This document shows positions 9,571 to 44,908 of a DNA stretch of 64,000 bases, one piece after another (position 1 is the stretch's first letter; each line of letters opens with the position of its first letter). Both the position numbers and the translations under genes were made by a program. This DNA is from Escherichia phage Ec_YwIITB1. The DNA lies in the sequence record PQ356294.1, one strand, 5' to 3'. The notes below the pieces were generated by a model, which ran no database searches, was not told the origin of the DNA, and saw nothing but the letters and a program-made list of their open reading frames with translations.

Positions 9571-9600
9571 CTAAAAAGCCCCAACCTTTCGGTCGGGGCT
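9571..9600 (-). terminator. intrinsic terminator hairpin downstream of the tRNA region
   Basis: agccccaacc-tttc-ggtcggggct hairpin followed on the minus strand by TTTTT; near-copy of the hairpin at 9012..9041. Confidence 0.55.
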
Positions 9601-9916
9601 AAGCCTTGCGGCAACCTTGTCGGGGTTCCACCTGCTAAGGCAAGTGTTTGTACGAAACGCCGGGATTTGAACCCGGTTATTAAGCAGTTGACGCTACTCA
9701 ATATTTTTAAAAGGCCATATCTCAACCATATCCGAACGTTCCGTCAAAAACGCTACTCGGCTTACAGCAAAAATATTTCCTCGAATCGATAATTCTGTGC
9801 GCCGTTTCAGCTGTGATGTAAGGGGACATTAACAGATCGTAAAGATTTGTTAATGCCAGTCCTTACCCAGGGAACATCAGTCCGACGACTTACCGGTAGC
9901 GACCCGGTTTCTTGTT

Positions 9917-9992
9917 TGGTCGAGGCAGTAGGGATCGAACCTACGACCTAGGACTTAGAAGGTCCTTGCTCTTCCTTCTGAGCTATGCCTCG
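9917..9992 (-). tRNA. tRNA-Arg (anticodon UCU)
   Basis: Manual cloverleaf: acceptor CGAGGCA/TGCCTCG, D stem GCTC/GAGC, anticodon loop CTTCTAA, T arm GTAGG-TTCGATC-CCTAC, encoded CCA. Confidence 0.85.
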
Positions 9993-10161
9993 AACCCATG
10001 ACTACGAGAATCACAATCTCGAGTTCTACCAACTGAACTACGGCCACATTAATACCTACTCCAACAATCAAGATGTCTTCACACGAAATTAAGAGAAGAG
10101 TGATCAGTTCAACCCCTATAATCGCGTCAAGTAGATATTAATGTGACAGTTGTCACAAATT
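9993..10161 (-). ncRNA. tRNA-like structured RNA (candidate counterpart of T4 stable RNA species 1/2)
   Basis: The 53 nt next to tRNA-Arg fold as acceptor strand GTGGCCG, D arm GTTC/GAAC, perfect anticodon arm CGAGA-TTGTGAT-TCTCG (GUG) and T-stem 5' strand, then run directly into tRNA-Arg with no T-stem 3' strand or acceptor 3' strand; hairpin tgtgaca/tgtcaca at 10141..10160. Confidence 0.4.
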
Positions 10162-10236
10162 TGGCGGACGTGATAGGATTCGAACCTATAACCAATCGCT
10201 TAACAGGCGATCGCTCTGCCATTGAGCTACACATCC
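10162..10236 (-). tRNA. tRNA-Asn (anticodon GUU)
   Basis: Manual cloverleaf: acceptor GGATGTG/CACGTCC, D arm GCTC-AATGGCA-GAGC, anticodon loop CTGTTAA, T arm ATAGG-TTCGAAT-CCTAT, encoded CCA. Confidence 0.8.
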
Positions 10237-10240
10237 AAAT

Positions 10241-10327
10241 TGGTGGGGAGTGGTGGAGTCGAACCACCCGAGTCGCAATGACAATGGATTTACAGTCCAC
10301 ACCGCTACCTCTACGGGATAACTCCCC
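10241..10327 (-). tRNA. tRNA-Tyr (anticodon GUA), class II with long variable arm
   Basis: Acceptor GGGGAGT/ACTCCCC, anticodon arm GTGGA-CTGTAAA-TCCAT, 15-nt variable arm, T arm GGTGG-TTCGACT-CCACC, encoded CCA. Confidence 0.75.
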
Positions 10328-10340
10328 TTAATTCTTAATT

Positions 10341-10415
10341 TGGTGGCCCTGGGTGGAATTGAACCACCATCTGGCGATTATGAGTCGCTTGCTTGAACCT
10401 TCCAGCTACAGGGCC
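10341..10415 (-). tRNA. tRNA with anticodon CAU (Ile by analogy to T4 tRNA-Ile; Met not excluded)
   Basis: Acceptor GGCCCTG/CAGGGCC, anticodon loop CTCATAA, T arm GGTGG-TTCAATT-CCACC, encoded CCA. Confidence 0.8.
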
Positions 10416-10416
10416 T

Positions 10417-10492
10417 TGGTGCTGATTGACGGAATTGAACCGCCGACCTTCCCATTACAAGTGAGTTGCTCTACCTACTGAGCTAAATCAGC
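10417..10492 (-). tRNA. tRNA-Thr (anticodon UGU)
   Basis: Acceptor GCTGATT/AATCAGC, D arm GCTC-AGTAGGTA-GAGC, anticodon loop CTTGTAA (stem has one mismatch), encoded CCA. Confidence 0.8.
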
Positions 10493-10497
10493 AAAAC

Positions 10498-10587
10498 TGG
10501 CGGAGGCGATAGGATTTGAACCTATGAGTCGCCGGAGCGACTGCCGGTTTTCAAGACCGGTGCATTAAACCACTCTGCCACGCCTCC
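10498..10587 (-). tRNA. tRNA-Ser (anticodon UGA), class II
   Basis: Acceptor GGAGGCG/CGCCTCC, anticodon arm ACCGG-CTTGAAA-CCGGT, long variable arm, T arm ATAGG-TTCAAAT-CCTAT, encoded CCA. Confidence 0.85.
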
Positions 10588-10589
10588 AG

Positions 10590-10663
10590 TCTCCATACAA
10601 GGATTTGAACCTTGGACCTCCTGATCCCAAATCAGGCGCTCTACCAAACTGAGCTACACGGAG
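10590..10663 (-). tRNA. tRNA-Pro (anticodon UGG)
   Basis: Acceptor CTCCGTG/TATGGAG (two G-U pairs), anticodon arm CCTGA-TTTGGGA-TCAGG, T arm CAAGG-TTCAAAT-CCTTG; CCA not encoded. Confidence 0.8.
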
Positions 10664-10673
10664 TAAATTAAAT

Positions 10674-10747
<74 letters not shown>

Positions 10748-10752
10748 AAATT

Positions 10753-10839
10753 TGGTGCGAGAAGTGGGACTCGAACCCACAAGGAAATCATTCCGCAGCA
10801 TTTTAAGTGCTGTGCCTTTACCAATTTGACCATTCTCGC
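10753..10839 (-). tRNA. tRNA-Leu (anticodon UAA), class II
   Basis: Acceptor GCGAGAA/TTCTCGC, anticodon arm CAGCA-CTTAAAA-TGCTG, long variable arm, T arm GTGGG-TTCGAGT-CCCAC, encoded CCA. Confidence 0.85.
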
Positions 10840-10840
10840 G

Positions 10841-10913
10841 CTGGGAATAAAGGACTCGAACCTTTGCATCCTGGAATCAAAATCCAGTGCCTTACCAACT
10901 TGGCTAATTCCCA
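10841..10913 (-). tRNA. tRNA-Gln (anticodon UUG)
   Basis: Acceptor TGGGAAT/ATTCCCA, anticodon arm CTGGA-TTTTGAT-TCCAG, T arm AAAGG-TTCGAGT-CCTTT; abuts tRNA-Leu, CCA not encoded. Confidence 0.8.
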
Positions 10914-43346: not shown

Positions 43347-44908
43347 ATGACTATCAAAACTAAAGCTGAACTTTTGAACAAATGGAAGCCATTACTGGAA
43401 GGTGAAGGTTTACCGGAAATTGCTAATAGCAAACAAGCGATTATCGCTAAAATCTTTGAAAACCAGGAAAAAGATTTCCAGACAGCTCCAGAGTACAAAG
43501 ACGAAAAAATCGCCCAGGCGTTCGGTTCTTTCTTAACAGAAGCTGAAATCGGTGGTGACCACGGTTACAACGCTACTAACATTGCTGCTGGTCAGACTTC
43601 TGGCGCAGTAACTCAGATTGGCCCAGCTGTTATGGGTATGGTACGTCGTGCTATTCCTAACCTGATTGCTTTCGATATTTGCGGTGTTCAGCCGATGAAT
43701 AGCCCGACTGGCCAGGTATTTGCACTGCGTGCAGTATATGGTAAAGACCCAATCGCTGCTGATGCTAAAGAAGCATTCCACCCAATGTATGGTCCAGATG
43801 CAATGTTCTCTGGTCAGGGTGCTGCTAAGAAATTCGCGCTAGCACACAAACTACTGTAAGTTGGAACCATTTACACCTATTTCTTCCAGGAAACTGGTAC
43901 TGTATATCTGCAAGCTACCTCTAGTTAAAGCAAATTGATACAAGTGCTTCTGACGCAGCTAAATTAGATGCTGAAATTAAGAAACAAATGGAAGCTGGCG
44001 TATTGGTAGAAATCGCTGAAGGTATGGCTACTTCTATCGCTGAACTTCAGGAAGGTTTCAACGGTTCTACCGATAACCCATGGAATGAAATGGGATTCCG
44101 TATCGATAAACAAGTTATCGAAGCTAAATCTCGTCAGCTGAAAGCTGCTTACTCTATCGAATTAGCACAAGACCTCCGCGCTGTTCACGGTATGGATGCT
44201 GATGCTGAACTGTCTGGTATTCTGGCTACCGAAATCATGCTGGAAATCAACCGTGAAGTTGTTGATTGGATTAACTACTCAGCTCAGGTTGGTAAATCTG
44301 GTATGACCCTGACTCCGGGTTCTAAAGCTGGTGTATTTGACTTCCAGGATCCGATTGATATTCGCGGTGCTCGCTGGGCAGGTGAATCCTTTAAAGCTCT
44401 GTTGTTCCAGATTGACAAAGAAGCAGTTGAAATTGCTCGTCAGACCGGTCGTGGTGAAGGTAACTTCATTATCGCTTCCCGTAACGTAGTTAACGTTCTG
44501 GCTTCAGTTGATACTGGCATTTCTTATGCTGCACAGGGTCTGGCTACCGGCTTTAACACTGATACTACCAAGTCAGTATTTGCTGGTGTTCTGGGTGGTA
44601 AATACCGTGTATACATCGACCAGTATGCTAAACAGGATTATTTCACTGTAGGTTATAAAGGTCCGAACGAAATGGATGCTGGTATTTACTACGCTCCATA
44701 TGTAGCTCTGACTCCGCTGCGTGGTTCCGATCCGAAGAACTTCCAACCGGTAATGGGATTCAAAACTCGTTACGGTATCGGTATCAACCCATTTGCAGAA
44801 TCCGCTGCTCAGGCTCCGGCTTCTCGCATCCAAAGCGGTATGCCTTCTATTCTTAATAGCCTTGGTAAAAACGCTTACTTCCGCCGTGTATATGTTAAAG
44901 GTATCTAA
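43347..44908 (+). CDS. 23: gp23 major capsid protein, frame-disrupted in this sequence
   Basis: ORFs 43347..43859 (170 aa, MTIKTKAELLNKWKPLLEGEG...) and 43988..44908 (306 aa, ...MEAGVLVEIAEGMATSIAELQEGFNG... to YFRRVYVKGI) match the N- and C-terminal parts of T4 gp23; the 130 nt between them encodes the conserved middle in alternating frames with two in-frame TAA stops. Confidence 0.9.

Follow-up and report, generated by a model that had tools for sequence, protein, structure and literature searches.

The window analysed here, a 64,000-nt stretch of DNA from Escherichia phage Ec_YwIITB1 (PQ356294.1), carries on its minus strand a cluster of eleven tRNA-like genes as called by ARAGORN (9917–10913). 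Calls were made with ARAGORN and, over the entire window, with Infernal, the latter using the Rfam tRNA model RF00005 at its gathering threshold of 29 bits. The source of the window is a Tequatrovirus, a T4-like coliphage: across the first 25 kb, Shigella phages sb1 and pSs-1 share ~97% identity with the window, as does Escherichia phage UGKSEcP2, and no record was found that is at least 99% identical to this part of the window. Read in the direction of transcription, the order is Gln-Leu-Gly-Pro-Ser-Thr-Ile(CAU)-Tyr-Asn-(structured spacer)-truncated His-Arg(UCU)-rnaD-rnaC, followed by a terminator-like hairpin.

All of the features described in this paragraph lie on the minus strand. The six leading genes, Gln(UUG), Leu(UAA), Gly(UCC), Pro(UGG), Ser(UGA) and Thr(UGU), are of T4 type and occupy 10417–10913, where they were detected by both ARAGORN and Rfam with scores of 59–68 bits each. 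They are followed by a tRNA gene with a CAU anticodon (10341–10415; ARAGORN and Rfam), labelled Met by ARAGORN and annotated as tRNA-Ile in relatives and in T4, which we treat as the T4-type tRNA-Ile. Next come tRNA-Tyr(GUA) at 10241–10327 and tRNA-Asn(GUU) at 10162–10236. The initial annotation had placed an Asn and a class II Tyr gene, both with an encoded CCA, in exactly this interval between the CAU tRNA and the tRNA-Arg region, and the ARAGORN coordinates agree with it to the nucleotide. Downstream of tRNA-Asn lie a small hairpin, GTGACAACTGTCAC (10143–10156), and the structured spacer that it precedes (10047–10145), the latter delimited by folding, conservation and covariation and situated directly 5′ of a tRNA-His(GUG) remnant that begins with G-1 and breaks off halfway through the T-loop (9990–10047; alignment with intact relatives). 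The tRNA-Arg(UCU) gene at 9917–9992 is an intact, T2-type allele (ARAGORN; Rfam 68.1 bits). Beyond it, alignment to the annotated T4 genes identifies homologues of the small stable RNAs rnaD (species 2; 9796–9915) and rnaC (species 1; 9651–9789), and a consensus scan finds a candidate terminator at 9577–9600, a pattern match with a 10-bp stem containing 7 G-C pairs and followed by TTTTT, which would mark the end of the tRNA/stable-RNA operon. A sigma-70 promoter scan of the spacer between Asn and His returned none on the minus strand; two promoters picked by eye in the same spacer (TTGACG... and TTGAAC-N15-TAATTT) are poor candidates and were set aside.

The tRNA-Asn gene is 75 nt long and reaches 74.1 bits with RF00005 (E 2.4e-14, model positions 1–71 of 71), the top score of the cluster. 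Its anticodon loop, CUGUUAA, has 7 nt with U33, G34-U35-U36 and a purine at 37, the discriminator is G73, and direct reading of the sequence gives a 3′-end of ...CACGTCC-G-CCA. The tRNA-Tyr gene is an 87-nt class II tRNA gene with a G1-C72 pair, discriminator A73, the anticodon loop CUGUAAA and, again by direct reading, the 3′-end ...ACTCCCC-A-CCA. Its variable arm of 15 nt, which bears out the class II assignment, forms a 3-bp stem of its own in which two of the three pairs covary. AsnRS and TyrRS identity sets comprise the anticodon and the discriminator base and, for Tyr, also the long variable arm, and the features of tRNA-Asn fit the set for AsnRS. The E. coli K-12 genes tyrT/tyrV and asnT share with the phage genes the two anticodon loops, the A73 and G73 discriminators, the encoded CCA and, for Tyr, the class II structure, but the overall identity is only 59/87 for Tyr and 47/76 for Asn, and the acceptor stems differ. 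The phage tRNA-Tyr furthermore differs from that of E. coli in having a variable-arm loop of 5 nt instead of 3 nt and a D-stem shifted by 2 nt.

Covariance scores below threshold had been named beforehand as the outcome that would speak against the two genes; both score above it, tRNA-Asn by a wide and tRNA-Tyr by a narrow margin (30.3 bits, E 0.027). The tRNA-Sec model gives 35.4 bits on tRNA-Tyr, under its own threshold of 47. The marginal score of tRNA-Tyr is explained by its D-arm, which has a 3-bp stem and is separated from the acceptor stem by 4 nt instead of the canonical 2 (positions 8 and 9). The description of both genes as well formed thus applies fully to tRNA-Asn, and to tRNA-Tyr as far as its covarying cloverleaf is concerned but not for the D-arm, which is non-canonical. 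This departure also explains why homologues have been deposited as "tRNA-OTHER", "pseudo" or "tRNA-Pseudo-GTA".

Nine tRNA-Tyr sequences were used for covariation, from the window, T6, T2, a Vequintavirus, a Felixounavirus, a T5-like phage, a Certrevirus and two Klebsiella phages, with the homologues being 72–99% identical to the window gene, against only ~60% for E. coli tyrT/tyrV. The D-stem CCG/CGG in alignment columns 12–14/25–27 is the sole register backed by both pairing and covariation: it pairs in 9/9 sequences with one C-G to U-A compensation, and 11:28 is unpaired in 7/9. The E. coli register (10–12 with 23–25) was rejected, since it leaves C opposite C in the window sequence and does not hold for Roth37. 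Over the whole cloverleaf 96.8% of cells hold standard pairs and compensatory changes occur in 15 of 24 pairs, values that none of 500 column shuffles reached, and sliding the 3′ partners by 1–3 columns lowers the paired fraction to 42–58%. All five helices are kept by compensatory substitutions across phage families. The cloverleaf is therefore strongly supported by compensatory changes in five phage groups, and these changes demonstrate, at the level of the aligned sequences, purifying selection on the structure of tRNA-Tyr. Since the D-arm variant is conserved across the entire phage tRNA-Tyr lineage, homologues of which occur in Vequintavirus, Felixounavirus, T5-like, Karamvirus and Klebsiella phages, we regard it as a trait of the lineage and not as decay.

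These results bear directly on whether one or both of the genes could be decaying pseudogenes that persist by linkage in a non-essential region. Such a reading could appeal to the Rfam score of tRNA-Tyr, which is barely above threshold, to the "tRNA-OTHER" and "pseudo" labels of some homologues, to the broken tRNA-His next door and to the finding that the tRNA region of T4 is non-essential (PMC2330249). We nevertheless give it hardly any credence, as tRNA-Asn scores highly and is invariant between the window and T2, the identity elements and the CCA are intact in both genes, and the five helices of tRNA-Tyr have been preserved as described above. The tRNA-Tyr of T6, a close homologue, is moreover expressed and biologically active (PMC13096335), and for tRNA-Tyr decay was rejected on the covariation together with these T6 experiments. 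We conclude that the Tyr and Asn genes of the window are very probably genuine phage tRNA genes, predicted from their sequences to be functional, that belong to the standard T2-type Tequatrovirus operon without segB.

The annotated T4 record (NC_000866) contains exactly the tRNAs Gln, Leu, Gly, Pro, Ser, Thr, Ile and Arg, the same eight that the initial annotation had listed for T4 when it described the present set as expanded. The window does add Tyr, Asn and a third tRNA that had been overlooked, the truncated His(GUG), yet its larger set is the common arrangement in Tequatrovirus. T4 and the window have the same operon frame from Gln to Ile, then Arg, rnaD and rnaC, and the same flanks (e.8 and homologues of trna.2-4/ipI), but differ in their Ile and Arg alleles and in what lies between these two genes. 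In T4 the Ile–Arg interval is filled by the 666-bp segB gene, which encodes a GIY-YIG homing endonuclease, where the window has Tyr, Asn and His. Thus, T4 lacks Tyr and Asn because segB occupies their slot. In the window, segB is absent from the locus, all ORFs of at least 40 aa between Ile and Arg overlapping the tRNA genes themselves.

The other T-even phages complete this picture, the order being Ile-segB-Arg in T4, Ile-Tyr-Asn-Arg without segB in T2 and Ile-Tyr-segB-Arg in T6. The tRNA region of T2L was sequenced by Brok-Volchanskaya et al. (2008; PMC2330249), who found Tyr and Asn between a "tRNA-Met", which is the CAU tRNA, and Arg. T2/T2L (EMBL AJ880101; genome AP018813) has the Ile(CAU)-Tyr-Asn-...-Arg order of the window without segB and an Arg allele likewise starting CGAGGCA; its tRNA-Asn is identical at 75/75 positions, including a 27-bp SegB site, and its tRNA-Tyr at 85/87. 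It differs from the window in that the ORF trna.1 replaces tRNA-Thr and Arg follows 4 nt after Asn, whereas the window has kept Thr and has a structured spacer of ~97 nt and the truncated His between Asn and Arg. In T6 (NC_054907), a tRNA-Tyr gene (KMB99_gt002) identical to that of the window at 86/87 nt likewise stands directly after tRNA-Ile(CAU), and the sole difference, at position 41, turns an anticodon-stem G.U pair into G-C. Unlike in the window, where Asn comes next, tRNA-Tyr of T6 is followed by segB, which drives tandem amplification. The T6 sequence switches to the segB cassette after Tyr-CCAATTT, at the first nucleotide of what is Asn here, and the two arrangements coincide again from AATTA, immediately ahead of Arg. 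The Arg allele of T4 and T6 differs from that of T2 and the window.

Among phage genomes at large, at least 446 records cover at least 80% of a 166-bp query spanning the Tyr and Asn genes, most of them with annotated tRNA-Tyr and tRNA-Asn; 475 records match this query at 95% identity or more, and 378 records match the entire 1.4-kb tRNA region with at least 80% coverage. The Tyr-Asn pair is nearly invariant across more than 440 genomes. FriedrichZschokke (MZ501067), UGKSEcP2 (OV876900) and AR1 (AP011113), relatives with 11 tRNAs each, have the order Tyr-Asn-spacer-His-Arg and are 96–97.5% identical to the window over the 1.4-kb region, but in contrast to the window their tRNA-His is intact at 76 nt. 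Close relatives are otherwise mosaic, with Asn-Arg in sb1, loss of His in TB004 and an extra ORF after Arg in UGKSEcP2. The Tyr/Asn expansion thus belongs to the segB-less, T2-type arrangement that is usual in the genus, and it is T4 that is reduced. Its set of eight tRNAs results from a homing-endonuclease insertion, so that T4 does not represent the reference state for Tequatrovirus. Tyr and Asn genes at this position were already known, from T2L in 2008 (PMC2330249) and from hundreds of annotated T4-like genomes. As a discovery the pair matters little, and the only parts of the locus not described in the literature that could be searched, both of them small, are the repeated loss of tRNA-His and the covarying RNA 5′ of it.

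SegB has its preferred 27-bp recognition site within the tRNA-Asn gene of T2L, a gene that was examined solely as the DNA target of this enzyme; the other tRNA genes carry weaker sites at their 3′-ends, of the motif GGTTCRANTCC ... CCAR (PMC2330249). By string match to the details given there, this preferred site is found in the window at 10160–10186 as GGTTCGAATCCTATCACGTCCGCCAAA, which spans the T-arm and the 3′-end of the tRNA-Asn gene, begins with GGTTCRANTCC and has CCAR at its 3′-end. The 27-mer is identical in T2, and it differs from the site in tRNA-Ser (10496–10522) at exactly G6, A16, G18, A26 and A27, as listed in the same study. The preferred SegB site is hence present in the window, and we infer that SegB would cleave window DNA. 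In crosses of T4 with T2L, segB was inherited by 99.6% of the progeny, and the T2L block for Met, Tyr, Asn and Arg was excluded (PMC2330249). As the cut site lies inside tRNA-Asn, a co-infecting phage that carries segB would be expected to replace the block by gene conversion, and the locus accordingly predicts that SegB-encoding T-even phages would exclude its tRNA region in mixed infections.

It could be argued from this that the block is a passive target, a landing pad for homing traffic, and that its distribution among the T-even phages comes from SegB gene conversion and not from selection on the tRNAs. The preferred site in the Asn gene, the presence of segB in the slot, alongside an Arg allele of another type, in both T4 and T6, and the mosaic arrangements of sb1, TB004 and UGKSEcP2 are all consistent with such traffic. 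This would however account for the distribution of the block and not for its retention; more than 440 genomes carry the pair almost unchanged, and the structure of tRNA-Tyr is under purifying selection. We consider this explanation improbable.

Our preferred reading is that the two genes are retained for the tRNAs that they supply. We propose that the operon would be transcribed as a single precursor, from which host RNase P and enzymes of 3′ processing would release the tRNAs; with the CCA encoded, no CCA addition would be needed. Host TyrRS and AsnRS would then charge the two tRNAs, which we propose because their anticodons, A73 and G73 and the long variable arm of tRNA-Tyr match the host identity sets. 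The charged tRNAs could add decoding capacity for the two amino acids whose usage by the phage most exceeds that by its host, and could sustain translation when host tRNAs are depleted, including by the tRNA-Tyr-cleaving nucleases of Septu and retron-Eco7. Amino-acid usage was compared between 60 non-overlapping ORFs of the window (18,035 codons) and 41 ORFs called in the same way from a 50-kb segment of E. coli K-12, and in this comparison of heuristic ORF calls with a small E. coli sample Tyr is the most enriched amino acid (4.20% against 2.55%, 1.64x) and Asn the second most enriched (5.91% against 3.73%, 1.58x), with Lys third at 1.55x. ORFs on the plus strand, which include annotated baseplate and capsid genes, contain 6.3% Asn and 4.3% Tyr. 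The excess of Tyr and Asn fits a supply-for-demand role of exactly these two tRNAs.

A further use has been documented for tRNA-Tyr. The Septu system EcB88 attacks tRNA-Tyr by cutting its variable arm (Chihara et al., 2026; PMC13096335), and T6 escapes by amplifying a 718-bp tRNA-Tyr-segB unit in tandem, a process driven by SegB. In that study the T6 tRNA-Tyr was found to be expressed, and its overexpression or amplification rescued T6 from Septu EcB88; T6 without the tRNA-rich region was sensitised, and T4, which has no tRNA-Tyr, was unable to escape (PMC13096335). Septu cleaves the phage-encoded tRNA-Tyr as well, and this tRNA is relatively unstable, so that protection depends on dosage, and wild-type T6 with its single copy is still restricted (PMC13096335). 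The tRNA-Tyr of T5 counters the PtuAB nuclease of retron-Eco7 (Azam et al., 2024; PMC11555353). At 86/87 identical nucleotides, the tRNA-Tyr of the window is almost the same molecule as the T6 tRNA-Tyr validated against Septu (PMC13096335). As there is no adjacent segB at the locus, the published amplification route is missing in cis, and the locus predicts a single-copy tRNA-Tyr that could buffer against defences of the Septu and retron-Eco7 type without segB-driven amplification in cis.

Alternatively, Tyr and Asn could owe their retention chiefly to counter-defence, as spares or decoys against tRNA-cleaving immune nucleases, and not to supply, a reading that overlaps with the preferred one and differs from it only in the dominant selective force. 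When it is amplified or overexpressed, the T6 homologue, 1 nt apart, neutralises Septu, and escape is not open to T4, which lacks the gene (PMC13096335); the T5 tRNA-Tyr acts against retron-Eco7 (PMC11555353). The tRNA-Tyr lineage is also common to unrelated coliphage families at 76–98% identity, which suggests horizontal spread under a common selection. In addition, the tRNAs beyond the T4 set, namely Tyr, Asn and His, all have GUN anticodons and belong to the queuosine family, a coincidence that among the 12 amino acids missing from the T4 set amounts to 4/220 = 0.018 by post hoc arithmetic; it was, however, noticed after the fact. Against a dominant role in counter-defence, single-copy wild-type T6 remains restricted by Septu with its phage tRNA cleaved as well, and the demand signal points strongly to exactly Tyr and Asn. 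The anticodon loops of both tRNAs are identical to those of E. coli, which gives no sign of nuclease-resistant loop variants; variants that evade nucleases in this way, an idea put forward in PMC10264068, were therefore rejected for these genes. No defence that targets tRNA-Asn was found in the literature consulted either, the PARIS paper being without Asn and PMC11555353 including Asn only as a negative control for PrrC170. We regard counter-defence as the main reason for retention as possible but rather unlikely. In our judgement the main role of the two tRNAs would instead be supply, in the sense of both meeting demand and buffering against tRNA loss, with counter-defence as a bonus that is documented for Tyr, and the two roles need not be exclusive.

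The spacer between Asn and His is ~113 nt long, ~97 nt of which form its structured part. It folds with an MFE of −32.4 kcal/mol (z = −3.39), a stability matched by 1 of 200 shuffles. A core of ~88–98 nt is conserved at 81–89% directly 5′ of tRNA-His in Karamvirus and in Klebsiella T4-like phages, where the upstream neighbour is tRNA-Gln and not Asn. RNAalifold was applied to six distinct sequences, which represent three lineages, and its predicted structure has three inner hairpins enclosed by a 15-bp stem whose end is G-1 of His. Compensatory changes occur in five pairs, and the paired fraction of cells is 96.7%, compared with no more than 52% in slid controls. The sample is small (n = 6) and the structure was derived from the same sequences, so this covariation is suggestive. 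The element has no Rfam family match, and it is retained in TB004 though His is lost there. We thus suggest that the ~97-nt RNA 5′ of tRNA-His may be a conserved, covarying element, one that does not appear in the literature that could be searched.

Taken together with the anticodons, this element invites a more speculative interpretation, in which Tyr-Asn-(~97-nt RNA)-His would be a mobile accessory cassette of queuosine-family tRNAs serving as insurance against nucleases of the host or of competitors that deplete these tRNAs, the RNA an undescribed stable RNA or processing element, and segB an alternative and mutually exclusive occupant of the same slot. We consider this unlikely as a whole. 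If true, segB and the cassette would each offer a different route to escape from defence.

In the closest relatives tRNA-His is intact, with 76 nt, a GUG anticodon, an encoded G-1 and a distance of 4 nt to Arg downstream. Alignment with these intact genes shows that in the window it is truncated by a 25-bp deletion that takes away the 3′-terminal third of His together with the 4-nt spacer and three nucleotides from the start of Arg, which leaves the His remnant fused directly to tRNA-Arg with the CGA at 9990–9992 common to both. The deletion falls between two CGA triplets, one in the His T-loop TTCGA and one starting the T2-type Arg, and as a consequence the Arg acceptor stem CGAGGCA/UGCCUCG is regenerated intact. 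ARAGORN calls an apparently intact "tRNA-His" at 9976–10048, which we rejected, since it overlaps Arg by 17 nt and the alignment shows the deletion; Rfam gives no tRNA match at the His remnant even at E ≤ 1. The His–Arg junction had no match in a 40-nt megablast search of 50,697 phage records, nor in an exact 32-mer scan of IMG/VR. The truncation, apparently found only here, is not described in the literature that could be searched.

The major capsid gene g23 is also disrupted in the window, by an in-frame TAA (43857–43859) and at least two frame changes between ~43836 and 43930, in a stretch only ~92% identical to the best records compared with ~97% for the first 25 kb of the window. That an essential gene is disrupted in this way points to local errors of assembly or consensus, and we therefore treat the 25-bp deletion in His as unconfirmed. 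Elsewhere tRNA-His has been lost in other ways, as in T2 and sb1, where Arg follows Asn directly, and in TB004, which keeps only the first 3 nt of His. In the usage comparison described above, with its heuristic ORF calls and small E. coli sample, His is the most depleted amino acid of the window ORFs (0.54x), which agrees with tRNA-His being dispensable.

The tRNA-His(GUG) gene of the minus-strand tRNA cluster is whole in the closest relatives of the phage but is cut short in the window by a 25-bp deletion bounded by two CGA triplets. Comparison with these relatives placed the remnant at 9990–10047 on the minus strand, with the junction near 9989/9990. Here the T-loop of tRNA-His is joined straight onto tRNA-Arg, the acceptor stem of which is restored whole at the junction. 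This junction was not found in any phage record or IMG/VR contig that we searched. ARAGORN does call a tRNA-His in the window, with a 17-nt overlap with tRNA-Arg, and this call was rejected as spurious.

Several independent losses of tRNA-His have occurred within Tequatrovirus. In Shigella phage TB004 just GTG is left of the gene, together with the structured element upstream, and in Shigella phage sb1 and T2 tRNA-Asn is followed 4 nt on by tRNA-Arg. The repeated loss agrees with the amino acid composition of the window's ORFs, in which His is the most under-used amino acid (0.54x an E. coli sample).

The conserved structured element, of approximately 97 nt, lies directly 5′ of tRNA-His (10047–10145, minus strand), with a small hairpin beside it on the same strand (10143–10156). 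It folds into three hairpins within a 15-bp closing stem (z = −3.39) and contains five compensatory pairs, and Karamvirus and Klebsiella T4-like phages keep it upstream of their tRNA-His. No family in Rfam matches the element, which may represent either a stable RNA not yet described or a leader involved in processing.

The tRNA-Asn gene contains, intact, the published preferred 27-bp site of the homing endonuclease SegB (10160–10186), and seven of the cluster's other tRNA genes carry weaker sites of the GGTTCRANTCC type. Given these sites, we would predict that the region is excluded when T4 or T6 is present in a mixed infection. 3′ of tRNA-Arg the window has homologues of two stable RNAs of T4, rnaD (species 2) and rnaC (species 1), at 9651–9915, and a strong terminator-like hairpin (9577–9600) closes the operon. 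Some relatives differ from the window here: in UGKSEcP2 and T2 the place immediately after tRNA-Arg is taken by an additional small ORF.

On the plus strand, gene 23, encoding the major capsid protein, is disrupted at 43836–43930 by an in-frame TAA (43857–43859) and by frame changes, such that the frame must go from 0 to 2, back to 0 and again to 2 in order to follow the protein. The stretch holding the disruption is variable, only about 92% identical to relatives, and an error in the assembly or consensus is the probable cause, which is why small indels elsewhere in the window deserve less trust.

The tRNA-Tyr belongs to a lineage with an unusual, shifted D-stem that is common to unrelated coliphage families at 76–98% identity (sampled in wV8, JeffSchatz, the T5-like pork29 and two Klebsiella phages), and the Vequintavirus copy differs from that of the window by 2 nt. 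These sequence similarities suggest that the gene has been exchanged horizontally among phages. Members of the lineage often adjoin other tRNAs with GUN anticodons; the order in wV8 is Asp-Tyr-Asn, and in Roth37 tRNA-Tyr lies near tRNA-Asp.
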